A stretch of 64,000 bases of DNA from an uncultured virus (IMG/VR IMGVR_UViG_3300021256_000060) (IMGVR_UViG_3300021256_000060), one strand, 5' to 3'; positions 2,917 through 64,000 are shown, numbered from the stretch's first letter. The notes: generated by a model from the sequence alone, not told the origin. Program-made: numbers and translations.

Positions 2917-2933
2917 CATTATTATAGTATATA
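2917..2933 (-). promoter_or_regulatory. phage early promoter motif RTATAYTATA-N3-RTG (1 of 13)
   Basis: Other copies, all minus and intergenic: 9010, 13079, 14229, 21877, 23484, 32082, 33761, 43507, 43673, 44672, 45146, 46807 (each 17 nt; 14229 has one mismatch). Confidence 0.8.
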
Positions 2934-2966
2934 ATAAAGTATAAGTTTAGCCACATACCCACACTA

Positions 2967-3202
2967 TTATCCTACATTCTTATACTTAGCCTTCAAAACC
3001 TTGATTCTGTCTATCTGATTCTGATTATAACGACGTCTACCCATATGAATAAAGGATTCCAGATTAATTACAGTATCCTTAAACACATTTACGTCATTAT
3101 TAAACAGACCATCATTACGAGAGATACAGAATGCATTTCTCGGAGAGTAAACAGCTTCACATGCATTATCAAAGGCCTTATTGAGAAGCAACTTAATATT
3201 TA
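2967..3202 (-). CDS. non-virion RNA polymerase beta'-N subunit, exon 2
   Basis: After splicing reads ...DYDGDC-LNIKLLLNKAF...SPRNAFCISRNDGLFNND; resembles, from recall, the region after DYDGD in AR9 nvRNAP beta'-N. Confidence 0.85.
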
Positions 3203-3742
3203 ATATGAATAGGTAGAGACCATGATATTATCTCATCTCTTTCCCCTCATTCGAACGCAGCAAGCGACTTTCATCGCACTACGCTTTCCATCGAGTATTA
3301 TCCCGACTAGAGACCATTCCTCCATTCCCGTTACAGGAACTTCTTAGGTTCGATCTCCGCTTTTCAGCATAGGTTAAGATGCTTATCTCCATATGGTTTC
3401 GCCATCAATCTAAATCGACCTATACCTTTCTTTCGTTCAGATAGACCTATCATTACATACATACCCTTAGGTGCCTACTTTATCTATATATACCTAGATA
3501 GTACCTATAATACTATATGGGTGTTCTCAACTGCCACCTTACTAACCCACAATACATATAGATTTTAATAGTAGATTCGTGTCCCTCACCATAGATATCT
3601 TATTGACTCCCGGTTTGTTCAACCGACTTTACCGAGCTACTAACCCTGATCTTTACAATCAACGCTAGTCGGAGATTAGAGGAGATACTTCTAGGCGTTA
3701 CCCTATCATTTTATCTCTCGGTCTACCCACACAAAATCGCAC
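3203..3742 (-). mobile_element. ORF-less group II intron (540 nt)
   Basis: 5' GUGCG; D1 closing GGGUAGACC/GGUCUAUCU; D3-like GAAGUUCCUGUAACGGGAAUGGAG; D4 reduced to small hairpin; 34-nt D5 AAGCGUAGUGCGAUGAAAGUCGCUUGCUGCGUUC (3253-3286); D6 ending AU; removal restores the reading frame. Confidence 0.92.
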
Positions 3743-9058: not shown

Positions 9059-9080
9059 ATTGAAAAAGGAGGAATCAATA

Positions 9081-22792: not shown

Positions 22793-23407
22793 TTAGTTTG
22801 GAACTTGTTGTGTTACCAATGGAGCTTCACTCTGCATACTCTCATACATACACTCCATATCTTCTTTAATCTCTTCTTGAGTTGCTCCACCAATATTCTG
22901 TTTAGTAAGCTTAGCAAATCTCTCTACATCGCTAGCATATGTTAACTGATGGGCATAACTACCAAACTCGTTATATTTCAGATGAATAGATTCCAAATCT
23001 TCTACAGTATTTACTATAAAGGCATTGATCCCATATCTTTGTTGTATTAGTTTCAATAGACTATCTATAATGGGCATAAGAGTAGGAGAGTTGTAATTAC
23101 TAATAACTATAGTATCCTCTTCATCAATCACTTTACTCATAATACTCATAAAGGCAATGAATGCTTCATCATTCCCTAAGATGTACTGAGCATATTTCTG
23201 ATCAAACTGAATACTATTAGTATCTCCAGTCTCATCTTCTTTCAGATATTCTAAAAAGTCATTCAATGGTGCCAACTTATCCAATCTATATCCATAGTCC
23301 AGTATGCTGAACACATTGAATGGTTTCTTATCGTCTGCTACTGCTTTAGTAGTAATCCATTCAACCAATCTAGGGTCATTTTGTGGGTCCACAATAATTA
23401 ATCTCAT
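22793..23407 (-). CDS. hypothetical protein, possibly DUF488-like fold
   Basis: LAP...FDQKYAQYI pattern; resembles 26017-26877. Confidence 0.6.
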   Translation of the reverse strand: MRLIIVDPQNDPRLVEWITTKAVADDKKPFNVFSILDYGYRLDKLAPLNDFLEYLKEDETGDTNSIQFDQKYAQYILGNDEAFIAFMSIMSKVIDEEDTIVISNYNSPTLMPIIDSLLKLIQQRYGINAFIVNTVEDLESIHLKYNEFGSYAHQLTYASDVERFAKLTKQNIGGATQEEIKEDMECMYESMQSEAPLVTQQVPN

Positions 23408-25280: not shown

Positions 25281-25438
25281 TTTCTACACTCCTTTATAGC
25301 CTTTTCCAATTTAACCTTAACTATTTCAATAGAGTCATTCATCCAATCAATCTGACCACTATTAGGAATCTTATCCCAATCTACTTTACGTGCTTGATAA
25401 CGAAGCTCTTCCAGCTTCATGTCCTTAATGGGTTTCAT
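25277..25438 (-). CDS. 53-aa hypothetical protein (below ORF-track cutoff)
   Basis: MKPIKDMKLEELRYQARKVDWDKIP...; ATGA overlap with next gene. Confidence 0.65.
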   Translation of the reverse strand: MKPIKDMKLEELRYQARKVDWDKIPNSGQIDWMNDSIEIVKVKLEKAIKECRK

Positions 25439-25985
25439 TAGAATTTCCTTCTTCCTTATCTACTGTATTTTTCTTAAGAGCTTTATTGAAGTCTGTAGAC
25501 TTTATCTCAGCTATCTCGTTTCTTACAAGAGTGAGCTGTTTGATCATATCTTGAAGAGAAGTGAAAAGATAACCAGTGTCTTTATGAACTTGCTTATCAT
25601 AATCCTCTAGGAATATCTTATATGCTTCAACCATCTTAGGACTCTTATTCAATAAGTCTATAACCGAGTTTAGATAGTTTATACAACCAGCATGATCATA
25701 CACTTCTGCTTTGCAATGAGAACATCTAGCATAGTAATCATTAATACTATTTCCTCCCTTAGATTTAATCAGACCTAAATGAGGACACTCATGCTGATAA
25801 CATGCCTTGATACATACCTTTTCTCTCTTCTTATCTACCAATTCATGTTCTAGTGTCTTCTCTTTAGAACACGCTAACTCATAATCCTTACGAAGCTTTT
25901 TCATCTTGTCAGATTCTGTAAAGCCCATAGTCTTCCATATATTACTCACCTTATTAAAGAAACTCATAACCTCTCCTCCTAACAA
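25425..25985 (-). CDS. coiled-coil protein with zinc-binding insert
   Basis: ECPH...RCSHC; start likely MSFFNK. Confidence 0.7.
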   Translation of the reverse strand: MLGGEVMSFFNKVSNIWKTMGFTESDKMKKLRKDYELACSKEKTLEHELVDKKREKVCIKACYQHECPHLGLIKSKGGNSINDYYARCSHCKAEVYDHAGCINYLNSVIDLLNKSPKMVEAYKIFLEDYDKQVHKDTGYLFTSLQDMIKQLTLVRNEIAEIKSTDFNKALKKNTVDKEEGNSNETH

Positions 25986-45213: not shown

Positions 45214-45630
45214 TCATACACGAATGACGTATTCTCCAGGACCATAAGATTCTAGGGATGCAAATATTGGTAGATAGCTATAATGAGAGATTCGATTTAG
45301 AACAAAGCATTGTTCTTCATCAGTCAATAGATGGCGATACGTATTAAATTGATTTAATACATAATGAGTCCATACTGATGCTAGATCTCTAAACTCACGT
45401 ACCTTATCACTACTATTAATAGTAGATAGGATATGAATAGCTCGATCTACTCCAATATCTATACCCTTAAGAATATACTGACTTCCTAATGTGAATCTAG
45501 ATAAACTATCATTACTGAACATACCAGCTCTTAATAGCTTAATCTTAATAGTGCTCAGCATGTTTAAATCATTTCTCATGATATCCGGAGTTTCATTAAC
45601 GTAAGGTAAGTTTGTATACAACGTACTCAT
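45214..45630 (-). CDS. hypothetical protein
   Basis: 138 aa, ATGA-coupled to rusA-like gene. Confidence 0.7.
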   Translation of the reverse strand: MSTLYTNLPYVNETPDIMRNDLNMLSTIKIKLLRAGMFSNDSLSRFTLGSQYILKGIDIGVDRAIHILSTINSSDKVREFRDLASVWTHYVLNQFNTYRHLLTDEEQCFVLNRISHYSYLPIFASLESYGPGEYVIRV

Positions 45631-46346
45631 TCCTTCCTGAAATAGGTTACGTTGTCCGCATTTTCTACTCTTTTTACTACTGAATCATACTGTATTCTGT
45701 TGTAGAGCATATTGAGGTATCTTAATGATATCTCAACTCTTGGTAGAATAGAATAGTATTTAGCCATACTAGATTCTATAACTAGAGCATCGTCTAGCCA
45801 TACATTACCATTATACATATCACTATACTTCTTCTCTAAGTTATCAAAATCTGGTTTGGTAATTGGTCTAATTATTCCCAATTCTGCCAAGTAAGTATCA
45901 ATCGCATTAAATTGACTAGGGGTGTGGATATATGCTTCGTAGTGTACAATACAAGGAGTATTAATCAGGTAGTCGGCCTCTAATAGTTCTTGTTCAGATA
46001 ATAACCGTTTCATAAAAGTTCTATCAGCATCACCAGTAATAGAATAAATCTGTATAAATCCAGGATTGGCTTTAGCTGCTGCCACGGCATTACTACGCTT
46101 TATATATCTTGCTCTTGGTCTTGGTGCTCCTTCTGGTTCTTCGTATAAAATTATTTTTAGCTCCTTAGAGAATCGTAATGCACCCATCATTTCGTTTCTC
46201 ATTTTAAAAATAGTATCGGCCTTGGCTGGAGTTAGGTGTAGATGCTCATACATCCAATCTAGCCTTTGTTGATAGTCTCTAGGGATCTCGCTATACTTTT
46301 TAGCATAGATCTCTTCTTTTTGTTTTCTTGATTTAGATACTGCCAT
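45627..46346 (-). CDS. rusA: RusA-family Holliday junction resolvase
   Basis: PRPR, KPDFDNLEK..SD...G.VWLDD..V, PRVEI motifs. Confidence 0.85.
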   Translation of the reverse strand: MAVSKSRKQKEEIYAKKYSEIPRDYQQRLDWMYEHLHLTPAKADTIFKMRNEMMGALRFSKELKIILYEEPEGAPRPRARYIKRSNAVAAAKANPGFIQIYSITGDADRTFMKRLLSEQELLEADYLINTPCIVHYEAYIHTPSQFNAIDTYLAELGIIRPITKPDFDNLEKKYSDMYNGNVWLDDALVIESSMAKYYSILPRVEISLRYLNMLYNRIQYDSVVKRVENADNVTYFRKE

Positions 46347-49119: not shown

Positions 49120-52100
49120 TTATTTAGGTTCTGATATCCAATCTAATGATTTTGCAATAGGAGTATAGGACTTGCCGTTCAGCTCAGACATATACCCACT
49201 ATTACCACCAAACACACTCATTCCAGGAACACTGGGAGTGGTTTGTTTAGTAGTTCCTTGTCCATTAGCAACGATAGCCTTAAGGATACCTTCTAATAGA
49301 CTATTGGTTTTCTTCTGTTCTTCTAGTAACTCAGTAAAGTTAGTAGGAGCTTCTGCTACCTTCTGGGTAGCTGTAGTTCTCACAGGAACTCTGCTTGCTC
49401 CAGTAACCTTGTTTACTGTTGTAGAAGTATTAGTAGTGTCTTCTTCACTAGTTCCGCTAGATTCATCTCCTATAATCATCGATGTATTAGACGTTTGACT
49501 CTTAGCTGTATTGCCAAGATTTATAGCCTCCTGCATAGATGCTCTAGTAGGATTGAAAATGTTAGCAATATTATTGAAGATTTGAGAGAATGGATCCATA
49601 GGTCTACCAGTCTTTGCTGTAACTTTGGCTTTCTCTCTTGGAGTTAGTTTCTTGGTATACCTCTTATCTTTAGATAGAATATCGATAGCTTGCTCTTTGG
49701 TATAACCTTGTTTGAGTAGATAATCTACATCGTTCTTTGTGTATGGTAAACCATTAGGACCTACTCCATATGGAGCAGTCTTGTCACCATCTTTTGAAGT
49801 TTTCTGAGTATACCTCTTATCTTTAGATAGAATATCGATAGCTTGCTCTTTGGTATAACCTTGTTTGAGTAAGTAATCAACATCATTCTTTGTGTATGGT
49901 AAACCATTAGGACCTACTCCATATGGAGCTTCGGTCTCAGTAACCTTGGCATTCCGATTAGCGCCAGAGAATATATCTCTTACAGTACCAGCAATCCTAT
50001 TGAACCATCCACCAATTCCTCTTTGCTTTTTGGCATCAGATTTTGAAGTTTTCTGAGTATACCTCTTATCTTTAGATAGAATATCGATAGCTTGCTCTTT
50101 GGTATAACCTTGTTTGAGTAGATAATCTACATCGTTCTTTGTGTATGGTAAACCATTAGGACCTACTCCATATGGTGCCTGAGTAGTAGATTCTTCTCTC
50201 TTACCACCAGAGAAGAAGTCTCTTACAGTACCCGCAATTCTATTGAACCATCCACCAATCCCTCTTTGCTTTTTGGCATCAGATTTTGGTTTGTCTTTAA
50301 CAGCTTCTTCCTTCTTCTGTTCTGCATTAGCATGATTTGGAGTAGGACCAGCCGCTTTCCCTAAGATTGTAGGATCAGAGAACTCTGTTGCCTTCTTCGC
50401 TTCTGGTTTGATAACCTGAGAAGGAGGAACAGGTTCTGCTTTTGGTACCGGAGGCACTACAGCAGCAGTCTTAACTGGTTCTTGTACAGGAGTAGCCTGA
50501 GCAGCTGGAGCTTCCTTGATGAAGGCCTGTCTTCTCATCTTAGTAAGAGTAGATTCATATACTCCATTATTGGTCGGATTAGCACTAGGAACTGCAGGTT
50601 CTGCTTTGAGAACTTGAGGAACAGCAGCAGGTGTTGCTGATTTATTAATAAATACCTGTTCTCTCATCTTAGCAAGATTCGACTTATATACTCCGTTATT
50701 CGTAGTATCAGATGTTGGAGTATTAGTAGCAGGAGATGCTGTCTGAGCTTGAGCTGCTGTACTAGCTGGTGCAATTGTAGGAGATACAGTAGTTCCAGGA
50801 AGGTTGCCAGTAGAGAATTTAGTATCTACGACACTAACTCCGTGCTGAGATAGAACCTGGGCTACTTTGCCAGCCAATTCTTTAGATTCTTGCTCTCCTT
50901 TAGGACCATGCTTAAAGAAGCCTTTCCATCTACCACCTTTAACGAAAGAACTATTAGAGAGAGTTACTCCGCATTGAGATTCTACGTCTCTAGTGATAGT
51001 TATTTTAGAAGCATCTCTAGGCATACCATCAGCAAAGATAGTGAATCCAAAGTATGCACCTCCACGGCCAAACTTACCTCTACCGTATTTTCCTTGTGGA
51101 TATTCATTAGAGCTCGGATCATCATAAGAATCAGCGTTATAATCATTAACGTGATAATTACCATTCTCAATCTCTTCTTGAACCCGTTCTGCAGAATCTG
51201 CCACCATGGAAGCACCATTTACGGCAACACCTAATGGATTCGTCATACCAGCAAGAGTCATTCCGGCACTAACTAGTGGGTCATCTAAAACAGTCTCTAC
51301 TACAGGACCAGCAACAGCCTTGATTCCATTCTTTGCTTGATCCCAAGCTCCTCTACCGTATTTAGCACGGCCATATTTTCCTTGTCCTTGACTTCTCAAA
51401 TACTGTACAGCTTCTGAGGTTGAGTAACCTTGGTTGACTAGATAATCGATATCATTCTTGCTAAATACAGTTCCGTTAGCATTGTTTTGCTTAACGAAAT
51501 CATGTTCTTGGCTATAAATATCTGCATTACCATTCTTATCAACTTTTCCTTCATCTCCTCCACTACTAGTAGCTACTGCATCTTCTTTCTTAGATTCTGC
51601 AGCCGTATTGGAAGAAGCTGGGGTAGCAGGATTAGTAGTCTGAGGAACTGAAGCATTCTTTACTCCACCACTAGATGCTTTCTTAACGATATCGTCAAGT
51701 TTAGAGTATAGATTAGCTCCTGGACAAGAAGTTTCGTTTACCTCTTTATGGCCAATAATATGTTTTCTATCTACTGGTATATTATATTTCTTACAAAGGT
51801 CTCTAATCAAATTGATGAGAGAACCTATTTGAGCTTCTGTAGGTTGATACTCTTCGAAAGCACCACCTACATGAATACCAATAGAATCACTATTAGAACC
51901 TTGGGCATGAGAACCAACCATTTCTTCAGGACGTCCACGTTCAATAGAACCGTCTTTCCTTATAACGAAATGGTACCCAATCCCTGACCATCCGTTCTTT
52001 TGATGCCAACCATGAATAGTTTTAGCATCTGGATCTGTTTTATCATCTCCAGGACCGGTATGGTGTACTATGATTCTATTAGTAGCACTTCTCTTTTCCA

Positions 52101-55100
52101 ATTCACCACTGAATGTGAGTCCAGTTTCTTTTACTCCAGCTAATGATGAACCAGCAGCTGCATTCGCTCCACCACTAGATCCACTATTACCAGAGCTATT
52201 AGGCGATCCGTATACGGCTCTCCAGATGGCACCTGCAGGACTGCTGGATATTTGTTTATCCAGTTCAGTTTTGAACCATCCCATCAGCCCAGCATCTTTC
52301 TTAGCGGATGATCCAGAAGAACCATTTGTACCTCCAGAGAAGCTACTGTCTGAGCTTACACCTTGACCTTCCTTATCATAGAATTCTCTAGCAAATACTG
52401 CTCTTCTTTGTTTCTTCTGAGCATCATCAGCCGAACGTTCGAACTGATCATGGAAGGTTATAGCAGCATCTTCAGGACTCTGGCTATCCATGGTAGCAAA
52501 CATATCCTTTACGTTACCATCTTTGCCAGACAACATATAGTCTATCTGAGTCTTCCAGTCAGAGTCTTGAGTACCTTGTGATTTTGCAAAGTCTTTCAGT
52601 CTCTGCTGTCTATCATCAGAAGTCCACTGTGCTAAGCCATATCCAGTAACGCCATCAACAGGACAATTGTCGGACCCGTTGCTTGGATCATGATTCTGAA
52701 GTCTATCTGAATAGAGTGAGGATTCTGCCATGAAGTTACCAAGAATACCTGCAGTCGTCTGATTAGACAAACCTTTAGATTTCATGTAAGTCCACAGCTT
52801 ACCACCGTCATTGCCAGTAGACTTTTCTCTACCATATTTTCCTTGACCAAAAGCATATGTTCTTTCGGCTTTAGTTTCTCCGAAATTAGTAGTGGGTTTA
52901 AGTTGAGCAGAGATATCCTTGATAGGATCCATAGAATTGGCCATAGCCAAATCTTGCATCATAGTAGAATCTTGAGAACCTCTGCCATACTTTCCTTGAC
53001 CAACTCCGGCATTGGAACTACCAGCATCAGCATTCATTTCTGCTTGTGTTCTAGTTGTTGCATCATTAGATACTACACTATTACCACTACCAGTAGCAAT
53101 GTATCCTTGTACGCTAGAATAGTGACCAGAAATGGAGTCACCATGAACAATCTTGTTCTTACTTGAAGAGTTACCCCAATATCCACCTTGACCATCTGCT
53201 ATTATAACATGGCCATGATCATTACAGATACATACATCGCCTTCAGCACCGCCTTGGGATGCATCCTTGAAGTATCCCTTATCTTTTGCCCACTGTTCAA
53301 GAGTAGGAACCCACATAAGAGTTGCTGCTTTAGTACTATCTACACTGGTTGGGATATGACTTGCTGCTGCCTTTACTTCTTCCATGATAGGACTGCAGTC
53401 TTCCATATAGTCACCCAGTTTATGACCAGCCTTCTTCAGATACCTCTTAACAAATTCGGTGCAGCCATTATTTCCGTAACCAGTAGTACCTTCCATTGAT
53501 TTAGCCCATTTACTTGCTTCAGCAATGTTTCCTCCACCAAATGAGCTATAAGGTCCGCTAACGGATGAAGATCCCGTTGAACCACCATTAGAACCGAATG
53601 CATCATTTCCGAATACATATCCTACCATTGATCCAGGGAGAAGTGCCTTTACAGCATCCCAGAATGCTCCAAGTAATCCCCCATTTCCTCCTCCTCTACT
53701 GCTTCCACTAGCATTTCCTCCTTTGGAACCTGATCCTCCAGTCATACTAAGAGGTGCAGCATCGCTAGGACGATTTTCTTGTAGTCTCTTTACAGCGTCT
53801 GGATCACCTTTAATAATACCTTCAATATTAGAAGCATATTGCCCTTCATCTGCAGTATAGTATCCACCTCTCTTAAGAGCGGCAGCCCATTCTGCAGGAG
53901 ATTTAGCGTCTAATAATCCTTCATCTTTATAACGAGGATAATACCAACTCATGTAGTTTACGAAAGATTGGTCATTATCGAAGAAGCTATGATGTCTATT
54001 ATCCTCACCAGTTACAGTCCAAGTGTAATTATCTTGGGTTCTTGGATTATTAAATCCTGCATCACCCTCGGCTGATTTAACACCACCATAGTTATGCTCT
54101 TTAGCCAGATCGGATTCAAAATGACCTGTCTCTAGACTCATCTGTGCCCAAATCAATTCTGGAGGTAATTTAGTATTCTTAGAGATCTCAATAGCAATCT
54201 CTTCTGGATTCATGAAGTCTTTACCACGGCCAAACCACCATGGATATTTTCCCTTACCCTTCATGAATGCTTTTCTTCTCATCTTAGTAAGATTAGAAGT
54301 GAATACACCTCTCTTATCTTTAGTACCTTTGCTAAGGGATACAGCATTGGTCATTCCATTAGAGATATCCTTAATTGGGTATTCTCTAACTTGGCTTTCC
54401 TCAGAATCATATACCTTAGCATATCCAGGTCTTGATCCTTTTTCGAACTGCTCATAATGCATACCAGGACCCCAAGGACCACCAGGCTTATTAGACTGAC
54501 CCATACCGATTACTTTCTTACCACTATTAATGGCATTAGCAAATTCGGATTTGTTTACGTCTTTAGCCTCATATCCTCTAGAGGTTGCTGCTTTATGAAT
54601 GAATCCAGGATCTACACCATCATCCTTGTGTTTAAACCTCAAGGATTCTTTTACAAGAGAACCGATTCGTTTACCAGAAGGATCTTGGCCTTCTAGACCA
54701 TTGAATGCATTCTCCAAAGAGTATGCAGCGCATGCTGAACTACTTACAGTTTCTTTAGAAGTATCTTGAGATGTATTGAATCTTTTGTTAGCGAGAGGGC
54801 CTACGTCCTGTCTAGCTATAGGTCTTTGATCTTTAGCTATAGGAGCAGATTCCTGAGCAGATTTGAACTCAGACTTGATTTTATCTTGAGCTGCTTGTTT
54901 AGCTTTGATTACAGTCAAGGAATCATTCTGTTTATCAATCTTATTGTACTCAGGTATTGATGCTGTCGGTTTAGGTGTTTGTTCTGCTGGTTTGGATTCT
55001 GCAATCTTGGCTTGAGCTTTAGCTTTCTCTTGAGCGGCTTGTTTAGCTTTGATTACAGCAATAGAATCGTTCTGTGGATCAATCTTATTGTAATCAGGTA

Positions 55101-58100
55101 CCGCTTTGGTCTGTTTAAATATGGGTTCTGCTACAGCAGGTTTTGATTCAGGTACTACTGGGGTAGGTTTAGATACTGGTTCTGGAGTAGTTGGCTTAGG
55201 TGTTTGCTCTTCTGCAACAGGTTTAGATTCTGCAATCTTATCTTCAGCTTTGGCTTTCTCTTGTGCAGCTTGCTTAGCTTTGATTACAGCAATAGAATCG
55301 TTCTGTGGATCAATCTTATTGTAATCAGGAATTTCTTCTCCTCTACCAAACTTACCATTACCGAACTTGCCACCGTGAGTATCTTTATTCTTATCATTAC
55401 CCCAGAAGCTATCCCATTTCTCACTGGCCCAGTCTAATCCACGTCTTACAAGAGACTTACCTTGAGGCTTGTCGTTTCCTTGCATCTTATTGACTGCATC
55501 TTCGCCAGCCTTCTTAGTAATAGCTACCTGTTCAGAAATGGATTTCTTATGCATTTCCTCATACTTCTTTTTATCGAAGTTAGGATCATCCTTGTGCTTC
55601 TCTGCGGTAGTCTTGACTCTCTGATCAATATCTTTTCTTACACTGTCAGAGATATTCTTATCCCAGTCTCCATCTTTACGATGAGCAGTCTGTTGCTGTT
55701 GCAGATAATCATTCTGCTTGGCTACGAGTTTATCGTCAGCCATATCTTTGGTGAGCTTATCATCCTTCTCTTTCTGCTTTCTGAGTTTGCGAAGATCTTC
55801 TGCACCAAAGTCGAATGCATCGCATACCTTCATAGCAATATCTACCCACGTTTTAGCAGGAACTAATCCAAATATAGGAGCTGCTGTGATTACGCCAAGG
55901 ATTGCGGCAAATGCCTTCATTCCTAAAGTAGCAGTACCAGGAGGGATACTGAGTATCTCTTCAGTATGAACCAAACCTTCATACACACCAGAAGCTACGA
56001 AAGCAGCTGTAAGTACCCAACCAATAACTGGGATGAATCTTGAAGCTTGTTGAGCAACCTTCTTCTTGACAGTCTCAAAGGTTTGTTTAGAAAGAATATG
56101 CTTCTCGAATGCATCACATAATACATTAATACCTTTCTTCCACTTATCGCCACCAGGAATATATTTAGCTGCTCCATCTCTAATATATCCTATTACTTCC
56201 TTGATCTTAGTTATAAGACCTTTATTCTCCGCCACTTCTTCAGCAGCCTTTGCTGCATCTTTAATGCCGGTTTTAGCAGTAGTTGCAATATTGGATGCTT
56301 TAGACGTTATTACATCTTTAGCGTCTTTGAAAGTCTTAGATGTTTTCTCCATGAAAGAAGTACTACTCTTTGCTGCATCTGCTGCAGCCTTCTCGCCAGC
56401 TTGTACTGCTTTTGTAGCATCCTTTGCTGTTTCAGCAGCTTTAGTAGCTGTCTTTCCAGCAGCTTTTTCTGCAGCACCAATAATACTCTTAGATTTATTA
56501 GTCAATTTAGAGATATCATTATTTAAGGTCTTCATCTCTGCATTGAGCTTCCTGGCCTTAGATTTAGATGTAGCAGGATCTTTGAGTTCTTTCTCTATTT
56601 CTGCTTTTCTAAGTTCTTTTGCTTTTATCTTTTCGGTAGCCTTATCTAGTTTATCAAGTTGCTCTGGAGAAATCTTGGCTCTAACGTCATCTGGTATAGA
56701 TGAAGGAGCAGCTCCTTTCTTTCTCCAATCCATATAAGTAGATACACCAGCGATACCGGTATCAATAACCATATCGGATACTGAGAAATCTCCTCCCATG
56801 GCCATACCGCCAGCTTGACCACCAACAACTGCACCTAGGATTCTGCTCTTCCAGCCTCCTCCTAATCTAGCACCTAGCATTTCGCCTGCTTTAGCACCAA
56901 CGATGTTACCACCGAGTTGCTTAATAGAATTCTTAGCTTCGTCCTCAGCACCTTCATCAGTGTTCATAATATAGCTTCCACCGATGACACCAGTTCCTAC
57001 AGCTGCTGCTTTGCCCCAAGTACCAAGGTGACTAGCAGCCTCTCCTACTTTACGAATTCCTTTAGCAATACCTTGCTTGGAGAATACTTTAATGCCTTCT
57101 TTTTCAGCAAAGTCTTGAGCTAATTTACGTTGAGCAGCTTCAGGAGACATACCTTTCTTAACTAGGTCCTTCACTCCCTTTTGGTACTCAGGTCTTGAAC
57201 TATATTTGTTAACTAAGTCTTGAACTGCATTATCTGCATATCTATTTGCTTTGTCTATACCCCAGTTAAAGGCTTTATTAGAAGCATACGTCAAACCTAC
57301 GTTCTTGGCAAACCCAAGACCAGCATCTGCTGCTCCTTCATAGTCTCCATCAGCGAATTTATATGCTGTAGCTAAACCGCCAGATACCAATGAATGTTTA
57401 AATGAACCCTCTGGAGCTTTTGTCCACAATCTAGCAGCCTTATCAGAAGCTACGCTGATAGCTAATGATCTTCCACCAGACTTGAGAGTATCCCCAGCTG
57501 ACGACAGAGTTTCGTCATTCTTAGTCCTAGCATTACTATTACCCTTTTCGTCTTCTCCAAGACGTTTGCCATGATTGAGTCGACGTACTCGTTCCAACCA
57601 ATTGAAAATTTCTTCAGGTTTCTTACCAGCTGCCATATAAGCATCGCACTGTGCTTGCTCTTTATATGATAGATCGCCGAACTTATCATACGCTTCAGGA
57701 TATGCTCTTATATTGAATAGAGTATCTCCCTTAATATGCTGAGCTCTCTCACTATTATCATATACTGACTTAACAGCAGAACCGATACCTAAGGCACCAG
57801 CTCCATATGCTAGAGCTTTACCTATCTTACCAAACTTTGGTAATCCTTTAACAATGGCATTGCCTACACCAGTAGTACCACCTTTTCTCCAGCCATTAAG
57901 ACCAGCCAAAGCTGCACCACCAGCAGTAATACCAAGAGTGGACAGAATGGGATGATCTTTGAAGGTCTCCCAAGCTTTTCCAAATGGAGTTAAGAAGTTA
58001 TCTACAGTTTTACCAATAAAGCCTTTCTTTTCGTAGTCCTTACCAGTAACGTCGTCGTAAATTCCAGATACAGATACTGAATCATCTTTTCTCTTACCTG

Positions 58101-61100
58101 GTTTGGTTTTTTGAGCTTCCTTCTTATCCTCGTTATCGGGTTTACTGTCACTAGAAGCTGCACTTGCCTCTGCTTTGGCATCATCATATAGATTATACCC
58201 TAAAAAGGCAGCAGCAATCGCAAGAACCTTTCCAGCTTTGGAACCAAGTATGGACTTGATGACACCTTTTACTAGACCACCAGATTTGGCTCCAGCCTTA
58301 GCACCTGCTTTTGCACCAGCTTTAGCAGTATCTTCAGCCGCTTCTGCTCCAAGCTTTCCAGCTAACTTGCCAAATGTATTTTTAATCGGACCTAGAACTG
58401 CTAAGAACAATGGGCCAATAAATGGTAGTGCTCCTAACGAATCTACAAGTCCTCCTAACACTTTAAAAGGCAATCCGGCTAATCCAAGTAGGCTGTCTAA
58501 TAAACCGCCTCCAGCAGCTTTTGCTGCTCCTTTAACCTTCTTACCTGCATTACCCAACTTATTGGAGATCTTTTCTAGAGCGGTTAGAGATCTTTCTTTT
58601 CTATCTATATCCGCCTGCTCCTTGGCATCTACCTCAGAGTTGTCTTTGGTATGTGCCGACATCATCCCACCATCTGTAGAGGATGTTGTGAAAGTCTTCG
58701 GTCCATATGCTGTTGGGATAATCATGGTTTCACCACGTTTGAGTGGTGCACTCATAGCCGAACCCATGACAGTATTGCCACTATGTATAGCTCCTATGGC
58801 AGCTCCTGCAGCCGTCGCTGCGTCTGAGGAAATACCACCAGCGGTGTCCTGTTCAGCATCTGCGCTGTTGGACTCGTCTTTCTTTTCTTTCTCTTTTTCT
58901 TCTTCGTCGTCATCTCCACCAAATAGAGACCCTAATAATGTGCCACCAAATAGACCTTTGGCTACACCTTTCCAACCACCTTTTTCAAATGCTTTTGCAC
59001 CTGTAGATATAGCTTTACCCCAAGCATGTTGAGGCATACCTTTAGCTTTTCTAAGCTCTTTACGTAGACTCCTCTTTTCTTTCTTAGAAAGATTAGGATC
59101 CTTTAATTTCTCTTCTAGTTCTGATATCTTTCCAGATACATCGTTTTCTTCTAGTTCCTTGGCTCGTTTTTGAGCACTTGTCATAGAGTCTTCAGCAAGC
59201 ATTTCTCTACTGCTGCCTATTAGTTCTTTGAATTTACTTAAGCCATCTTCGATATTTAATTCTTTATTATAGATAGCCTCAGCAATTTCATATGTTTCTT
59301 CAGGGTGATACATAGCTGCTATAATCATAGACTCTACATTATCACCGAGCATAGTTGATACGTTCTCGATTATTTTATCACCAATGGTCGCATTCCATGC
59401 TTGTCTAGCATACATTGCACCAAAATCGTTAAAGAATTGAGGAGATGTAGCAATAGCATAACCAGTTCTACCAGCTGCTGCTAGATTAGAACCTATCCTC
59501 ATTCTTCCAGTAGCTTTATCTGCTCCCCAGATTCCTAGATCTAGAGCCTTATTAGCAGCCCACTTAGATAACCCTAGAGCTTTCTTTCCTACGGTTTGAG
59601 CAGCACCAACAACTCCATTATATTTACCAGTAAGAGCACCAATCTCAGCATTAGTAGTACCATTAGTAATAGCATCGAATTCTAAACCACTCATACCACC
59701 TTGTTTATACTGATTCTTAATAGAATTACGATCTTCAGTACTCTTAGTAATACTATTCTGGAATGCATGATAGTTTGGATTCTTAGGATTACTATATTCA
59801 TCAACCCAACTGAAAGAACTATCCAATCCTGCCTTATAAGTAAGACCTTCTCTATGCTCACCTTCAGTCCACAGCTTCTGAATCTCATCAGCTATCATCT
59901 GTTGACCAATAGTGGTTACACTACCATCTTCAAGAGTAACTTGGGCAGCAGCGAACTTGATCATGTTCTGAGCAACAGCAGGTTCTAGATCTTTAAAGAT
60001 GGAGAAGTCTTTTACTGGAATTTGCATCTTAACAAATTCAACAGCAGTCTTGAACCCATCGTCATTCAACTCAGCAATAGTCTTATACTGATCTGGATCT
60101 ATCTGTAAACCAAGAATAGTGAGATCAGCTATTCTACTGAATGCCTGACCAGTCGGATCTAACTTAAATAGTTTATCGAAGTCTTCAACAATAGCAGTAT
60201 TGCCTCTCTCCAAGGCTTTATTGAGCTGAATAAATGATTCACCGAATTTATTACGATGCTTACTATTAAGCACATAATCTCCAGCTTCTTCTGTAAGTCC
60301 TTGGACTGTTTGGAAGGCATTTACTCCATGCAACTTGTCGATATTGGCATTATATTCTGCATTGGTTGATTCCTGGCCTCTTCTTAGACCCTCATCTAAA
60401 TATGCAGCACTCTTCTGTTGAGCATATTTGATACCTCTCATATCTTTTACTAAATCTAGAGACTTAGCAAACTTAGTAGGATTCTCTCCTCTAAGAGTAG
60501 CAGTAAGATAATTAAGAGCATCAGTGTTCTCGGCAGTAGCCTCCATTTCCTTGACCTTCAATTCCAAATCCTTTTCAGGATCGAACATTGAAGCATCCAT
60601 TACTCCGCCAGCCTTGGCTATATCTTCGGCATATCTACCTTTTACTTTGTCTCTATTAGCATTCTCATTCTCTAATAGTTCAGCAAGGTTTGAAAGCATC
60701 TTGATGAGATCATCTTCATCAATACTATTGTTGAAGTATTTCTCTCTTACCCTTTTAAGAGATTTTTTAACTACTTCAGAGTCTCCTTCTTCTCTCCATT
60801 TTCTTCCTTCTCTGATTCCAGCAAAGGACTCATTTGAAGATTTGAAAAGTTCCTCTAATTCTTTTCTATCCTGAATACTAAAGTTGGAATTCCTCATGAT
60901 ACGTTCGAGTTCATCACCAACATTTATTTTCTCACTGTCATCTCCACTTCTCAGTTTCTCAGCGAGATCCATAAGGTCAGAATGAACTAGAGTAGCATTT
61001 TCAGTATATTCAGGATTTTCCGTTATCTTACTAATAGTGCTTTGGAGATTAGAAAAGATCTCTCCCTCTTTTCTCTTACTAGCATTACCAGTTCCTTTAT

Positions 61101-64000
61101 CATAAAACTCGGCTAAAGCTCTAAGATTCTTGGCTTCATTAGTAACTTCATCACGTCCAAGATGCGAAATTACATCATAGCCAACTCCCATCTTATTATC
61201 TTTTATACCGCGTTCTTTTAACTCAGCAGACAGTTCGGCAGCTGATTTATCAGTGATTTCAGCATTTCCTAATTGAGCACTTCTTAATCTATTACCAAAT
61301 CCTTCAACTAAGCTAGCAACTCCACCTACAGCTCTACCTACTGTATTTTGTGCTACCCATTTACCGAATCCACCTGCTTTTCTTACACCACCAAAAGTGA
61401 AGTCTAAGATCTTCTCCATAGTAGATCCACCGGAGCCTCTTAGTACTCCTTCAATAGTATCTAGTACAGATTTAGATCCCTTTTTAAGAATATTCTTTAC
61501 TTCATCAGCTACTGGTTTGAGACCTCTTCCTAATGGTTTAGTAACGTCATCTCTAAACCACTTACCGAAATCCTTCTTCATCTTATCCATATTTTTCTTG
61601 AGAGGATTAGTAATATGACGTCTAATAGCACCAGCGAGGCCACCATGACGAACACCATTCTTATCCTTAGCACCAAGAAGGGTCTTCTTGAAGAGTTCAG
61701 TAGTAGATAGTAATCCTAGACCTGCTCCAAATACAGCATTTCCTAACAGACCGAATGGGCCTAAGAAGAATGTGGATAATACACCAGCGGCAATATTCGG
61801 GAAGGCCTTCTTGATAGCTTGCTTTCTATCCTTGTTCAGCAATCCACCCTTATCACCAAAGATGAATTTATTAGCTGATTCATTATTCTTGATATAGGAG
61901 CCAGCTATACCCATCATTAACCCACCAAGTGGACCAAATCCAGTTACAGCTCCTAGTAATGTACCGGCTATACCATACTTCTTAGCGTCAGGAACATACT
62001 TCTCTAGAGACTTAACAAACTTGGCAGAGATTAGACCATTCTCTTTTCTCTCACCAGTCTTATTACCATTAGCATCTACAATTTCTTCACCAAACATATA
62101 ATCCATAAAGGATTTATTGTTAGATAAGAGAGATACAGCAGCACCAGCAGCTGCACCAAATAAAGGACCACCTAATGGGAATACAGTACCTAAGAGAGCA
62201 CCAGCCATACCACCCTTCATCAGCTCAGGGGTATTATGAATAATATACTTCTTAGTCTCCTCTAAAGCTTTAGCAGGATCAGTACCTGTAGCTTGTAGAG
62301 CAAACTGCTGCATACCATTAGCAATACCAGTCTGACGTGAGTAGTCTTGGTTAAGCATCTCTTCATTAGAATCAAGCTTACCCTCATACCCTCCAGCTCT
62401 TATTGCTTTTTCAGCAAATCTCTGAAGATTTGGATTGTTTCTTATAGCAGGAGAATGCCATACGTATTGAAGAGCATTATTAAGCATTTCCTTATCATCA
62501 GGAGTAAGGTCTAGCTTATTTATAAACCCTCCAGCTTTACCTCCAGCATAATCTGCTACAAGATCGATAGCTAGATTAGGATCTAATCCATATTTCTGCA
62601 ATAGACTTTGAACAGGACTAATAGCACCAGCCAATTCATCTGGGGAGATCTTCTTAAATAAGTACGATACAAGATTCTCTTTACCCTCTGCAAATCCAGG
62701 AAGGTTCTTACTATATCCATCTCCATTAGATCCACTTATTCTACTAGTGATTCTATTCCGTATTCTATTCTCATTCTGATAATCAGCCATAGGATTAGCA
62801 CTCATTCGGCTAGGATTCCAAGGATTTTGATCAGATGGAATAACTACAGAATCATCATCAATAGTAGTAACACCACTCTTAGTGACATTAGTTGTTCCAC
62901 TACCATCAGAATTGAATACAGCTTCTCCCTTAGATACTATTGCCGGAAATTGGCCAAATGCTCTACCAGGGATATTAGATTCTCCTTCAGCTTCAGGATT
63001 TTCTTCCTTATTCTGCTGATTGAATTTACCTTCTTTAATATCAGTATATGTACCCTTTATTGAGTTCTTTACATCATCAAGTATAGACTTAGCTGAATTT
63101 TTTGCATTGTTTCCAAAGAAGGATAGCTTATCTTTAGCCTTAGCAGCGAAGTCATCAATATCTAAGTTAAAATTGTCTTTAACAAAGCCTTTAGCTTGTC
63201 CCCACCACTTACCTTTATTATCATTAAGCTTATTAGCAATATCAGATACGGTCTCATTAAGAGTAAGACCAGCTTTATTCATCTCATACATGACTTTGCC
63301 AAAGAATCCCTTTACAGGTCTTCCTTGTGCGTCTAACTCATCAGTTTCGCGACCAAATAAGAGGTCATACATCATGTTATCAACAGAGCTTATGATACCA
63401 GTCATCATAGCTCTAGGAGATGCCAATAGCTTATTGATATTAGCGCTAATAACGCCCATTTTATTTCCAAGGGTGCCTGCAGCTGCTAACTGCTTCAAGA
63501 AACTATCTTTAGGATTAGCTCCATAGCTTTTCAATTTCTGGTTCAGTTCTTTTTCACTAAGATCAGAACCCAAAATAGAATCAGCTATGCTATGTTCCAT
63601 GTCATAATTGTTTTCTCTGGCTTCTTTTTGAGATTTATCATATAAACGAGATAGCTCTACTCTATATTTATTAGCAGCATCTTCATCGTTCATGATTCTA
63701 CCAATATCACCAGTCTGCATATCTAATCTAGTATTATTTTGGATACCGTATCTTTTACCTTCAGATACCCAATATGCATCGTTCATGACATTGGCGCCTT
63801 CGGCAGTATAATGACGTTCAAGAATCATTCTTTCTAGATCTGTCAAACCATCAGGGTCTGGATCATCATCGGACCCGCCAGATTCTCCGTCATTTCCTTC
63901 TCCAGAGTTTCCTCCGTCTCCGCCGCCATTATTAGGACCACTATATCTTTTTCCCTTTTTGTGTTTGTATTTTCTAGGCTGCCCTAGATATCTACTATCT
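49120..64000 (-). CDS. giant tape-measure-like virion protein with multiple cell-wall hydrolase domains (5' end outside window, >4950 aa)
   Basis: Frame open past 63846 to window end; G/A-rich helical TMP-like N-region; C39-like, glucosaminidase, CHAP/NlpC-like, phage tail lysozyme and Amidase_2 motifs in C-region. Confidence 0.85.
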   Translation of the reverse strand, partial: DSRYLGQPRKYKHKKGKRYSGPNNGGGDGGNSGEGNDGESGGSDDDPDPDGLTDLERMILERHYTAEGANVMNDAYWVSEGKRYGIQNNTRLDMQTGDIGRIMNDEDAANKYRVELSRLYDKSQKEARENNYDMEHSIADSILGSDLSEKELNQKLKSYGANPKDSFLKQLAAAGTLGNKMGVISANINKLLASPRAMMTGIISSVDNMMYDLLFGRETDELDAQGRPVKGFFGKVMYEMNKAGLTLNETVSDIANKLNDNKGKWWGQAKGFVKDNFNLDIDDFAAKAKDKLSFFGNNAKNSAKSILDDVKNSIKGTYTDIKEGKFNQQNKEENPEAEGESNIPGRAFGQFPAIVSKGEAVFNSDGSGTTNVTKSGVTTIDDDSVVIPSDQNPWNPSRMSANPMADYQNENRIRNRITSRISGSNGDGYSKNLPGFAEGKENLVSYLFKKISPDELAGAISPVQSLLQKYGLDPNLAIDLVADYAGGKAGGFINKLDLTPDDKEMLNNALQYVWHSPAIRNNPNLQRFAEKAIRAGGYEGKLDSNEEMLNQDYSRQTGIANGMQQFALQATGTDPAKALEETKKYIIHNTPELMKGGMAGALLGTVFPLGGPLFGAAAGAAVSLLSNNKSFMDYMFGEEIVDANGNKTGERKENGLISAKFVKSLEKYVPDAKKYGIAGTLLGAVTGFGPLGGLMMGIAGSYIKNNESANKFIFGDKGGLLNKDRKQAIKKAFPNIAAGVLSTFFLGPFGLLGNAVFGAGLGLLSTTELFKKTLLGAKDKNGVRHGGLAGAIRRHITNPLKKNMDKMKKDFGKWFRDDVTKPLGRGLKPVADEVKNILKKGSKSVLDTIEGVLRGSGGSTMEKILDFTFGGVRKAGGFGKWVAQNTVGRAVGGVASLVEGFGNRLRSAQLGNAEITDKSAAELSAELKERGIKDNKMGVGYDVISHLGRDEVTNEAKNLRALAEFYDKGTGNASKRKEGEIFSNLQSTISKITENPEYTENATLVHSDLMDLAEKLRSGDDSEKINVGDELERIMRNSNFSIQDRKELEELFKSSNESFAGIREGRKWREEGDSEVVKKSLKRVREKYFNNSIDEDDLIKMLSNLAELLENENANRDKVKGRYAEDIAKAGGVMDASMFDPEKDLELKVKEMEATAENTDALNYLTATLRGENPTKFAKSLDLVKDMRGIKYAQQKSAAYLDEGLRRGQESTNAEYNANIDKLHGVNAFQTVQGLTEEAGDYVLNSKHRNKFGESFIQLNKALERGNTAIVEDFDKLFKLDPTGQAFSRIADLTILGLQIDPDQYKTIAELNDDGFKTAVEFVKMQIPVKDFSIFKDLEPAVAQNMIKFAAAQVTLEDGSVTTIGQQMIADEIQKLWTEGEHREGLTYKAGLDSSFSWVDEYSNPKNPNYHAFQNSITKSTEDRNSIKNQYKQGGMSGLEFDAITNGTTNAEIGALTGKYNGVVGAAQTVGKKALGLSKWAANKALDLGIWGADKATGRMRIGSNLAAAGRTGYAIATSPQFFNDFGAMYARQAWNATIGDKIIENVSTMLGDNVESMIIAAMYHPEETYEIAEAIYNKELNIEDGLSKFKELIGSSREMLAEDSMTSAQKRAKELEENDVSGKISELEEKLKDPNLSKKEKRSLRKELRKAKGMPQHAWGKAISTGAKAFEKGGWKGVAKGLFGGTLLGSLFGGDDDEEEKEKEKKDESNSADAEQDTAGGISSDAATAAGAAIGAIHSGNTVMGSAMSAPLKRGETMIIPTAYGPKTFTTSSTDGGMMSAHTKDNSEVDAKEQADIDRKERSLTALEKISNKLGNAGKKVKGAAKAAGGGLLDSLLGLAGLPFKVLGGLVDSLGALPFIGPLFLAVLGPIKNTFGKLAGKLGAEAAEDTAKAGAKAGAKAGAKSGGLVKGVIKSILGSKAGKVLAIAAAFLGYNLYDDAKAEASAASSDSKPDNEDKKEAQKTKPGKRKDDSVSVSGIYDDVTGKDYEKKGFIGKTVDNFLTPFGKAWETFKDHPILSTLGITAGGAALAGLNGWRKGGTTGVGNAIVKGLPKFGKIGKALAYGAGALGIGSAVKSVYDNSERAQHIKGDTLFNIRAYPEAYDKFGDLSYKEQAQCDAYMAAGKKPEEIFNWLERVRRLNHGKRLGEDEKGNSNARTKNDETLSSAGDTLKSGGRSLAISVASDKAARLWTKAPEGSFKHSLVSGGLATAYKFADGDYEGAADAGLGFAKNVGLTYASNKAFNWGIDKANRYADNAVQDLVNKYSSRPEYQKGVKDLVKKGMSPEAAQRKLAQDFAEKEGIKVFSKQGIAKGIRKVGEAASHLGTWGKAAAVGTGVIGGSYIMNTDEGAEDEAKNSIKQLGGNIVGAKAGEMLGARLGGGWKSRILGAVVGGQAGGMAMGGDFSVSDMVIDTGIAGVSTYMDWRKKGAAPSSIPDDVRAKISPEQLDKLDKATEKIKAKELRKAEIEKELKDPATSKSKARKLNAEMKTLNNDISKLTNKSKSIIGAAEKAAGKTATKAAETAKDATKAVQAGEKAAADAAKSSTSFMEKTSKTFKDAKDVITSKASNIATTAKTGIKDAAKAAEEVAENKGLITKIKEVIGYIRDGAAKYIPGGDKWKKGINVLCDAFEKHILSKQTFETVKKKVAQQASRFIPVIGWVLTAAFVASGVYEGLVHTEEILSIPPGTATLGMKAFAAILGVITAAPIFGLVPAKTWVDIAMKVCDAFDFGAEDLRKLRKQKEKDDKLTKDMADDKLVAKQNDYLQQQQTAHRKDGDWDKNISDSVRKDIDQRVKTTAEKHKDDPNFDKKKYEEMHKKSISEQVAITKKAGEDAVNKMQGNDKPQGKSLVRRGLDWASEKWDSFWGNDKNKDTHGGKFGNGKFGRGEEIPDYNKIDPQNDSIAVIKAKQAAQEKAKAEDKIAESKPVAEEQTPKPTTPEPVSKPTPVVPESKPAVAEPIFKQTKAVPDYNKIDPQNDSIAVIKAKQAAQEKAKAQAKIAESKPAEQTPKPTASIPEYNKIDKQNDSLTVIKAKQAAQDKIKSEFKSAQESAPIAKDQRPIARQDVGPLANKRFNTSQDTSKETVSSSACAAYSLENAFNGLEGQDPSGKRIGSLVKESLRFKHKDDGVDPGFIHKAATSRGYEAKDVNKSEFANAINSGKKVIGMGQSNKPGGPWGPGMHYEQFEKGSRPGYAKVYDSEESQVREYPIKDISNGMTNAVSLSKGTKDKRGVFTSNLTKMRRKAFMKGKGKYPWWFGRGKDFMNPEEIAIEISKNTKLPPELIWAQMSLETGHFESDLAKEHNYGGVKSAEGDAGFNNPRTQDNYTWTVTGEDNRHHSFFDNDQSFVNYMSWYYPRYKDEGLLDAKSPAEWAAALKRGGYYTADEGQYASNIEGIIKGDPDAVKRLQENRPSDAAPLSMTGGSGSKGGNASGSSRGGGNGGLLGAFWDAVKALLPGSMVGYVFGNDAFGSNGGSTGSSSVSGPYSSFGGGNIAEASKWAKSMEGTTGYGNNGCTEFVKRYLKKAGHKLGDYMEDCSPIMEEVKAAASHIPTSVDSTKAATLMWVPTLEQWAKDKGYFKDASQGGAEGDVCICNDHGHVIIADGQGGYWGNSSSKNKIVHGDSISGHYSSVQGYIATGSGNSVVSNDATTRTQAEMNADAGSSNAGVGQGKYGRGSQDSTMMQDLAMANSMDPIKDISAQLKPTTNFGETKAERTYAFGQGKYGREKSTGNDGGKLWTYMKSKGLSNQTTAGILGNFMAESSLYSDRLQNHDPSNGSDNCPVDGVTGYGLAQWTSDDRQQRLKDFAKSQGTQDSDWKTQIDYMLSGKDGNVKDMFATMDSQSPEDAAITFHDQFERSADDAQKKQRRAVFAREFYDKEGQGVSSDSSFSGGTNGSSGSSAKKDAGLMGWFKTELDKQISSSPAGAIWRAVYGSPNSSGNSGSSGGANAAAGSSLAGVKETGLTFSGELEKRSATNRIIVHHTGPGDDKTDPDAKTIHGWHQKNGWSGIGYHFVIRKDGSIERGRPEEMVGSHAQGSNSDSIGIHVGGAFEEYQPTEAQIGSLINLIRDLCKKYNIPVDRKHIIGHKEVNETSCPGANLYSKLDDIVKKASSGGVKNASVPQTTNPATPASSNTAAESKKEDAVATSSGGDEGKVDKNGNADIYSQEHDFVKQNNANGTVFSKNDIDYLVNQGYSTSEAVQYLRSQGQGKYGRAKYGRGAWDQAKNGIKAVAGPVVETVLDDPLVSAGMTLAGMTNPLGVAVNGASMVADSAERVQEEIENGNYHVNDYNADSYDDPSSNEYPQGKYGRGKFGRGGAYFGFTIFADGMPRDASKITITRDVESQCGVTLSNSSFVKGGRWKGFFKHGPKGEQESKELAGKVAQVLSQHGVSVVDTKFSTGNLPGTTVSPTIAPASTAAQAQTASPATNTPTSDTTNNGVYKSNLAKMREQVFINKSATPAAVPQVLKAEPAVPSANPTNNGVYESTLTKMRRQAFIKEAPAAQATPVQEPVKTAAVVPPVPKAEPVPPSQVIKPEAKKATEFSDPTILGKAAGPTPNHANAEQKKEEAVKDKPKSDAKKQRGIGGWFNRIAGTVRDFFSGGKREESTTQAPYGVGPNGLPYTKNDVDYLLKQGYTKEQAIDILSKDKRYTQKTSKSDAKKQRGIGGWFNRIAGTVRDIFSGANRNAKVTETEAPYGVGPNGLPYTKNDVDYLLKQGYTKEQAIDILSKDKRYTQKTSKDGDKTAPYGVGPNGLPYTKNDVDYLLKQGYTKEQAIDILSKDKRYTKKLTPREKAKVTAKTGRPMDPFSQIFNNIANIFNPTRASMQEAINLGNTAKSQTSNTSMIIGDESSGTSEEDTTNTSTTVNKVTGASRVPVRTTATQKVAEAPTNFTELLEEQKKTNSLLEGILKAIVANGQGTTKQTTPSVPGMSVFGGNSGYMSELNGKSYTPIAKSLDWISEPK
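49649..50285 (-). repeat. near-identical intragenic repeats
   Basis: 3x APYGVGPNGLPYTKNDVDYLLKQGYTKEQAIDILSKDKRYT and 2x KSDAKKQRGIGGWFNRIAGTVRD.FSG, nearly identical at DNA level. Confidence 0.9.
54880..55330 (-). repeat. 3x P(D/E)YNKID.QNDS..VIKAKQAAQ repeat
   Basis: Visible in translation and DNA. Confidence 0.85.

Follow-up and report, generated by a model that had tools for sequence, protein, structure and literature searches.

Wall-hydrolase arrays with a recurring junction motif and an embedded C39-like peptidase in giant proteins of uncultured jumbo phages: candidate processed polyproteins

Analysis of a 64,000-nucleotide stretch of DNA from an uncultured virus (IMGVR_UViG_3300021256_000060; the whole stretch is called the window below) revealed a single open reading frame (ORF) on the minus strand that encodes a giant protein with five predicted enzyme domains. 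These are, in order, a C39-like cysteine peptidase, a glucosaminidase, an NlpC/P60-like cysteine peptidase, a phage lysozyme and an amidase, and the same ORF holds all six sites of a short glycine-rich motif (Table 1). We read the motifs as putative processing sites and the embedded C39-like peptidase as the most likely cutter; the reading is tentative, and we put its chance slightly below even. A wider proposal, possible but held with more reserve, is that in hundreds of uncultured jumbo phages the wall-breaching tail toolkit may be a self-cleaving polyprotein, in which a C39-like peptidase would cut after [YFW]-G-[RK]-G and free interchangeable two-enzyme lysins and a small peptide at assembly or infection.

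The six motif sites named in a preliminary description of the window were all found at the claimed positions. The pattern K[YFW]G[RK] occurs eight times in the giant ORF; 200 shuffles gave 0.55 occurrences on average and never more than 4. The giant ORF has six copies of the form [YFW]G[RK]G, and the 57 other ORFs of the window (15,009 amino acids, aa) have none; in the relative G001, a viral contig of 266,420 bp that is 96–97% identical, it occurs seven times in the giant protein and in none of 275 other ORFs (73,213 aa). The eight motif copies are encoded with differing synonymous codons, and therefore the peptide, not a DNA repeat, is conserved, which argues for selection on the peptide. 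Judged from these sequences, the motif is genuine, under selection and specific to this one protein. Two other origins were discarded: a DNA repeat or recombination hotspot was excluded by the codon usage, and a general head-protease site was rejected because the motif stands in no other ORF. In the literature searched, none of GKYGRG, GKWGRG or KYGRG was found in a phage protein, nor was GKFGRG in a phage context.

To place the motif in the wider family, a search with the array region scored 1069 candidates, of which 234 giant proteins passed E <= 0.001, and the N-terminal 700 aa of the G001 orthologue gave 880 clusters at 50% identity, of which the best 150 were used for family comparisons. 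Domain maps were drawn with jackhmmer over small sets, and their E-values are relative to those sets. Motif placement and junctions were counted in 15 diverse homologues, with 98 motif instances and 47 junctions. Eight of the 98 instances fell inside catalytic domains, compared to an expected 29.5% (P 2.4e-7). The strict pattern, which does not capture variants like YGRE in the window protein, was present at 11 of 13 junctions from the C39-like domain to the next domain, at 7 of 10 where a peptidase or amidase precedes another glycosidase or unit, and at both junctions from glucosaminidase to lysozyme; between a glycosidase and the following peptidase or amidase it was seen at 1 of 20 junctions, and between NlpC and amidase at neither of two. 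Junctions free of the motif are Gly/Ser-rich linkers, and linkers of this kind join the glucosaminidase to the NlpC/P60-like domain and the lysozyme to Amidase_2 in the window. As the motif is nearly absent between a glycosidase and the following peptidase or amidase, the units that it delimits are mostly two-enzyme lysins; in the window these are the glucosaminidase with the NlpC/P60-like domain and the lysozyme with Amidase_2.

The earlier suggestion that the motif marks module boundaries was thus borne out in part. The motif avoids catalytic domains and brackets the C39-like domain, but it mostly delimits enzyme pairs and not single enzymes. Missing conservation of the motif at junctions in homologues had been named in advance as the outcome that would count against the idea, and the motif was found to be conserved at junctions in distant homologues. 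Shuffling of modules, also proposed before, is apparent among relatives, where the enzymes other than the C39-like peptidase occur in at least 25 different orders. Swaps between relatives end near the motif; the window has the NlpC/P60-like domain where P0002 (family members carry such numbers here) has an M23 domain, with the same motif and the same 43-residue peptide following in both. Such swaps would suit a functionless motif, a scar or joint of module shuffling kept by descent. We consider this explanation very improbable: the copies have no DNA identity beyond what the peptide demands and so are not recombination substrates, and the motif peptide is kept between proteins that are only about 30% identical in their N-terminal region, while it is absent from the rest of the genome.

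Across the 98 instances the consensus is G(-4) x G(-2) K(-1) [FYW] G [RK] [GA], with nothing conserved downstream. On the upstream side, G(-4) and G(-2) were each present in 46 of 98 instances and K(-1) in 62 of 98, against a background of about 10% for each position; distant relatives keep only G-[KR]-G-[ST]. The aromatic residue varies by lineage, being Trp in P0009 and P0011, Phe in P0004 and P0012, and Tyr in P0003, P0024 and P0036, and it is associated with the protein in which it stands (chi-square p 2e-9). For co-variation between peptidase residues and the aromatic residue of the motif, 42 proteins were usable; among these the Trp class is a single clade and Tyr and Phe interchange 11 times. 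By these comparisons the aromatic residue is clade-specific. In the structure models of both the C39-like and the NlpC/P60-like domain, the motif regions have predicted local distance difference test (pLDDT) values below 50, which suggests flexible and accessible segments.

Of 131 family members with 1900 residues or more, 116 gave a C39-like domain by jackhmmer. The domain precedes all other catalytic domains in 113 of the 116, and 108 have just one copy. In 45 of the 116, a strict motif stands ahead of the catalytic Cys at a distance of up to 120 residues (median 31 residues, interquartile range 30–36), and the looser G[RK][GAST] is found upstream of this Cys in 91. At least three strict motifs are carried by 60 of 105 C39-bearing relatives with hydrolases, compared to 0, 0, 0, 1, 0, 1, 2 and 0 in eight hydrolase-bearing relatives that have no C39-like domain, among them S6_0290 of Staphylococcus phage S6. 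Where members with the C39-like domain are poor in strict motifs, degenerate forms such as GKGTG and GRGS stand at the corresponding positions (seen in 14 viewed proteins out of 36). At the level of the sequences compared, the coupling of the C39-like domain and the motif is real but loose. A complex prediction for the C39-like domain (residues 1–168 of the alignment) and an 81-residue stretch with sites 3 and 4, run without controls, scored 0.01 and 0.00 against a mark of 0.32, values that count on neither side of the question of binding. The C39-less relatives P0153, P0159, P0185 and P0224 have another short motif, [YF]-A-x-G-T, just before the lysozyme and after M23 (for example GYAGGT, GFAEGT and SYAKGT), and a similar PGFAEGK stands in the N-terminal body of the window protein.

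In the processing reading that we favor, the layout would be that of a long N-terminal body followed by one C39-like peptidase, the wall-cutting units, the 43-residue peptide and a conserved 83-residue segment. Between the units, the motif G-x-G-K-[YFW]-G-[RK]-[GA] would be recognized by its N-terminal side and cleaved at the final Gly or beside it, with the C39-like peptidase most likely acting in cis at the flanking sites and in trans elsewhere. We infer a tail location for the protein, cleavage as such, the bond cut, the enzyme that cuts it and the timing of the cut. The phage would deliver a single chain, and at the cell wall the two-enzyme lysins would then work as free pieces; if sites 3 and 4 were both cut, the 43-residue peptide would be set free as a small peptide. 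A conserved short junction motif and a protease are present in the same chain, as in self-processed polyproteins. We favor processing because the motif is exclusive to the protein that bears the peptidase; because there are two kinds of junction, motif-bearing and Gly/Ser-rich; and because the conservation is one-sided, resembling the way C39 peptidases read leader peptides. The same conclusion is suggested by the aromatic residue, which changes in concert across the sites of a protein as it would with one co-evolving partner, by the fixed and motif-bracketed position of the peptidase while the other enzymes shuffle, and by the few strict motifs in C39-less relatives with hydrolases. There is also precedent, since StbD-CT, a C39 toxin at the end of a giant delivered protein, is described as cutting its own linker in an intramolecular reaction, after Gly-Gly and 25 residues ahead of the catalytic Cys (10.64898/2026.05.07.723447, preprint), and tape measure proteins are, according to PMC1796659, often processed at their ends or internally, T4 gp5 likewise needing cleavage for full activity.

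Several observations weigh against processing by the C39-like domain. The fixed distance between motif and catalytic Cys may reflect no more than a motif that abuts the domain. Strict motifs are missing from 17 of the 105 relatives that have both the C39-like domain and hydrolases, where only degenerate G-[KR]-G-[ST] forms are present, and therefore the C39-like domain does not require the aromatic motif; conversely, P0008, P0011 and P0132 have at least three motifs and no C39-like domain detectable by jackhmmer, a C39-like Cys...His stretch being seen by eye only in P0008 and P0011. The junction counts are not independent, because the 15 proteins include close pairs. The tail location rests on the depositors' annotations of S6-like orthologues, and the protein may instead be an ejected head protein. 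The motif also departs from the canonical Gly-Gly of C39 substrates, having Arg or Lys at -2, and it forms 12 tandem doublets in 14 proteins, which would suit an avidity or binding motif equally well. C39-like (N5) domains of mycobacteriophage Lysin A are presumed wall peptidases in PMC3314691, and therefore a C39-like domain need not be a processing enzyme.

The last three points also speak for a serious rival, namely that the protein stays uncut, that the motif is an inter-unit linker (a cationic-aromatic tag, docking element or hinge) and that the C39-like domain is a fifth wall-cutting peptidase. Docking could be to the tail-tube lumen, to other units or to wall polymers. Consistent with this explanation are the annotation of a C39 protease domain in the lysin A of a Gordonia phage (PMC12821328) and the presence of the pseudomurein endoisopeptidase PeiR among the fold and profile matches of the C39-like domain. 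We regard an uncut protein as a real possibility, though on the unlikely side. The C39-like domain keeps its first position in 113 of 116 members while true wall enzymes shuffle, and it is bracketed by motifs instead of being paired with a glycosidase like the other peptidases; moreover, a plain linker would not need one-sided, lineage-specific conservation, and within the units a different, Gly/Ser-rich linker is used.

The motif could also be a cleavage site for another phage protease or for a host protease, which we consider improbable. A basic residue before Gly suits many trypsin-like or clostripain-like enzymes, and two small ORFs of the window give weak, sub-threshold papain-like matches. 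The protease that processes tape measure proteins is, in the part of PMC1796659 drawn on here, generally unknown. Against another cutter stands the exclusivity of the motif, which is found in no other protein of the 266-kb genome, so that a general maturation protease would have a single substrate; the loose coupling between the presence of the C39-like domain and that of the motif across relatives points the same way.

The domains on which these readings rest had been proposed earlier from the sequence, and all five hold, three by Pfam and two by predicted folds with invariant Cys and His; their order and approximate coordinates agree as well. The Glucosaminidase domain (PF01832) scored 48.2 bits (cut-off 30.2), Phage_lysozyme2 (PF18013) 102.8 bits (cut-off 28.2) and Amidase_2 (PF01510) 89 bits (cut-off 26), the last also matching the PHROG amidase phrog_822 (E 1e-39). 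The C39-like segment of the window matched no Pfam family at E <= 10 and gave no useful sequence match in the PDB. Its AlphaFold2 model (mean pLDDT 77.9) had 34 Foldseek matches with E <= 0.001, the best being the C39 peptidase domains of PCAT1, ComA and LahT (E 1.2e-5 to 1.1e-4). Target-normalized template modeling (TM) scores against the isolated domains of these three proteins were 0.62–0.71, at 13–19% identity to solved domains. In an alignment of the window sequence with seven homologues, Cys3090 and His3181 were invariant (8 of 8), and the candidate third catalytic residue was Asp in seven sequences and Asn in one. Homologous domains in P0005, P0007, P0010, P0012, P0016 and P0024 reached 24.8–49.1 bits against the PF13529 (Peptidase_C39_2) cut-off of 24, and these six were tied to the window's segment via jackhmmer. 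The alignment profile gave weak matches in the PDB to dionain-1 (E 0.046) and PeiR (E 0.084); the best profile match, a glutamine ABC substrate-binding protein (E 1e-4 over 46 residues), was taken as spurious. As modeled, the domain is a genuine C39-fold cysteine peptidase with catalytic Cys and His and predicted activity.

The second cysteine peptidase, previously described as CHAP/NlpC-like, had no Pfam match and no useful PDB sequence match in the window. Among eight aligned members one matched NLPC_P60 (E 0.029) and one CHAP (E 0.042), both below cut-off, and Cys and His were invariant in all eight. Foldseek returned nothing at E <= 0.001 for its AlphaFold2 model (pLDDT 80.1; best E 0.16). 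With VIA-align, the model superposed on the autolysin Acd24020 with Z 10.6 and a root-mean-square deviation of 2.4 A over 111 residues, and with Z about 10 on CwlO, MepS and SagA; Z was at least 8 in 63 of 138 chains, mostly NlpC/P60 or CHAP peptidoglycan peptidases. On the strength of the model, the segment is better called NlpC/P60-like. The AlphaFold check per segment that the preliminary description had proposed thus returned a C39 peptidase fold for the first segment and an NlpC/P60-like fold for the second.

Table 1. Features of the giant ORF and neighboring genes in the window. Residue i of the giant ORF starts at window coordinate 63999-3(i-1).
Feature	Window coordinates	Strand	Residues	Remarks
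Giant ORF	49120-63999	-	at least 4959 aa	N-terminus past the window end
Motif site 1, GGKFGNGKFGRG	55339..55374	-	2876-2887	boundary between N-terminal body and enzyme array
Three 'PDYN' repeat copies	54850..55338	-	2888-3050	inserted between site 1 and C39-like domain
C39-like papain-fold cysteine peptidase (predicted)	54265..54747	-	3085-3245	Cys3090, His3181
Motif site 2, GKGKYPWWFGRG	54223..54258	-	3248-3259	
Glucosaminidase (PF01832)	53809..54201	-	3267-3397	
NlpC/P60/CHAP-like cysteine peptidase (predicted)	53050..53517	-	3495-3650	
Motif site 3, GQGKYGRG	52978..53001	-	3667-3674	
Conserved 43-residue peptide	52849..52977	-	3675-3717	between sites 3 and 4
Motif site 4, GQGKYGRE	52825..52848	-	3718-3725	8 residues ahead of lysozyme domain
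Phage_lysozyme2 (PF18013)	52372..52800	-	3734-3876	
Amidase_2 (PF01510)	51718..52083	-	3973-4094	
Motif site 5, tandem GQGKYGRAKYGRG	51349..51387	-	4205-4217	
Conserved segment	51100..51348	-	4218-4300	between sites 5 and 6; homologous segment in P0003
Motif site 6, tandem QGKYGRGKFGRGG	51058..51096	-	4302-4314	
C-terminal region without motif	49123..51057	-	4315-4959	Pro/Thr-rich linkers, three 'DYL' repeats, conserved C-terminal tail
'DYL' repeat region	49648-49929	-		
RNA polymerase beta-type subunit piece	3723-5096	-		phrog_2987, E 2e-48
RNA polymerase beta-type subunit piece	9060-10352	+		phrog_2962, E 1e-61
Small ORF	22793-23407	-		sub-threshold papain-like match
Small ORF	25425-25985	-		sub-threshold papain-like match
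RusA-like Holliday junction resolvase gene	45627-46346	-		among virion-protein genes just downstream of giant gene

Smaller elements of the array also recur in relatives. Homologous pieces of the 43-residue peptide were found in P0002 and P0010 by jackhmmer, and similar pieces in P0004 and P0007 by eye. The 'PDYN' (xIPDYNKIDPxNDSxxVIKAK, three copies) and 'DYL' (APNGLPYTKNDVDYLLKQGYTKEQAI, four copies) repeats are small modules whose copy number varies across the family. The DYL copies lie at residues 4169–4201 and 4601–4775; they gave weak Pfam matches to DUF434 and UBA-like families, and the last two copies are a tandem DNA repeat, 95% identical.

The orthologue of the giant protein in G001 is complete, with 5640 residues, and starts MAKMPSILEYTK. 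The window contains two genes for RNA polymerase beta-type subunit pieces, and this split multisubunit RNA polymerase places the phage among the AR9/phiKZ-type jumbo phages. The nearest cultured relatives are the Bacillus phages AR9, PBS1 and BpSp and Staphylococcus phage S6, which share only about 30% identity in an RNA polymerase piece. The Amidase_2 domain is closest to Clostridium phage endolysins (43–46% identity), and this likeness, together with the choice of enzymes, suggests that the host is probably Gram-positive. A megablast search of the giant ORF against cultured phages gave no match, nor did tblastn with the N-terminal body, first as an 851-aa piece and then as 321 aa at E 0.01; comparison of the 851-aa N-terminal piece with AR9, BpSp and S6 returned nothing. 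A search of these three phages with PF18013 detected the family in S6 only, and the N-terminal 2870 aa of the giant ORF matched no Pfam family. The papain-like matches of the two small ORFs were to EDR1/CTR1/ARMC3 peptidase-like (E 7e-4) and UCH (E 8e-3) families, and judged from these matches the two ORFs could be further cysteine peptidases of the structural gene block. A RusA-like resolvase gene lies near the giant gene, and a Holliday junction resolvase is listed among the structural proteins of the BpSp virion proteome (PMC4870245).

No description of a protease-punctuated wall-hydrolase array was found in the literature searched. The present analysis adds the genome-wide restriction of the motif to the giant protein, a rule for the pairing of enzymes within units, the one-sided sequence logo, the positional constancy of the peptidase and the C39-less counter-examples. 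If the protein is cut, several wall-cutting enzymes would be loaded per tail through one gene and released separately, a polyprotein strategy that would be new for tailed phages within the literature searched, and RNA-virus-type polyprotein processing would also occur in structural proteins of double-stranded DNA (dsDNA) phages. Cleavage would further define a protease/site pair, with catalytic Cys3090 and a motif of 6–8 residues. The motif-delimited units would serve as ready-made lysins of natural origin, two enzymes each, against Gram-positive walls. Even without a cut, the motif is a junction signal that is conserved and specific to this protein, in a family that counts 880 clusters or more.

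By homology, the giant protein, of which the array forms the C-terminal third, is a member of the tape-measure/tail-lysin family of AR9/S6-related jumbo phages. As the window is without the first ~680 residues of the protein, N-terminal homology was tested on relatives: S6_0290 matched P0012 (E 6e-6, positions 176–568 and 187–571, respectively) and S6_0300 matched P0002 (E 3e-6). Counterparts in Staphylococcus jumbo phages are S6_0290 and S6_0300, UFVDC4_00259 and UFVDC4_00260, and proteins of MarsHill, Madawaska and SA1; the names given by depositors to the S6-like orthologues, as reported in PMC10638138, are tail lysin, tail lysozyme and tape measure protein. The S6-like phages resemble the window lineage in the N-terminal region, in the domains near the C-terminus (either Phage_lysozyme2 with NlpC/P60, or M23), and in the split multisubunit RNA polymerase genes. 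S6_0290 carries lysozyme2 and NlpC/P60 and S6_0300 carries M23; the two are paralogues (L021 4722-10604 and L022 28-6006) and are hypothetical proteins in the S6 record. Both the C39-like domain and the [YFW]G[RK][GA] motif are absent from S6_0290, S6_0300 not having been scanned for either. Thus, the S6-like phages distribute the wall enzymes over two adjacent genes of about 2000 aa each, with one wall-cutting unit apiece, whereas the window lineage has a chain of about 5640 aa with all enzymes.

The length of the protein has a precedent in the tape measure protein of P23-45, given as 5,002 residues in PMC10770324. Wall-cutting activity inside a very long tail protein is shared with TM4 gp17, T5 pb2 (cited in PMC4870245) and lambda gpH. 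These, however, have one hydrolase motif and no protease domain in the chain, no repeated junction motif is known for them, and their processing sites and enzymes are mostly undefined. A papain-fold C39-like domain beside a glycosidase and an amidase, as in the window protein, is found in the N5 domain of mycobacteriophage Lysin A; that protein is an endolysin of a few hundred residues without a junction motif in the portion of PMC3314691 considered here, where the role of N5 is taken as peptidoglycan cleavage.

The predicted C39-like domain is most similar in fold to ComA, PCAT1 and LahT and shares with these and with StbD-CT the Cys/His pair; in the processing reading it would also share a substrate that is read N-terminally and cut after Gly. 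It differs from them in its putative substrate, as Arg or Lys takes in the window motif the place of Gly, Ala or Ser in C39 substrates, and in the many putative sites per chain without an ABC transporter. In the lactococcal phages Tuc2009 and TP901-1, self-cleavage of the tail-associated lysin Tal at a glycine-rich sequence frees an M23 virion wall hydrolase; Tal has a single site and no papain-like protease domain, and it is much smaller. RNA virus polyproteins likewise combine, in one chain, an embedded papain-like cysteine protease with short junction motifs ending in Gly. They are replication or capsid precursors, whereas the window protein would be a structural protein of a dsDNA phage, and its cleavage is putative.

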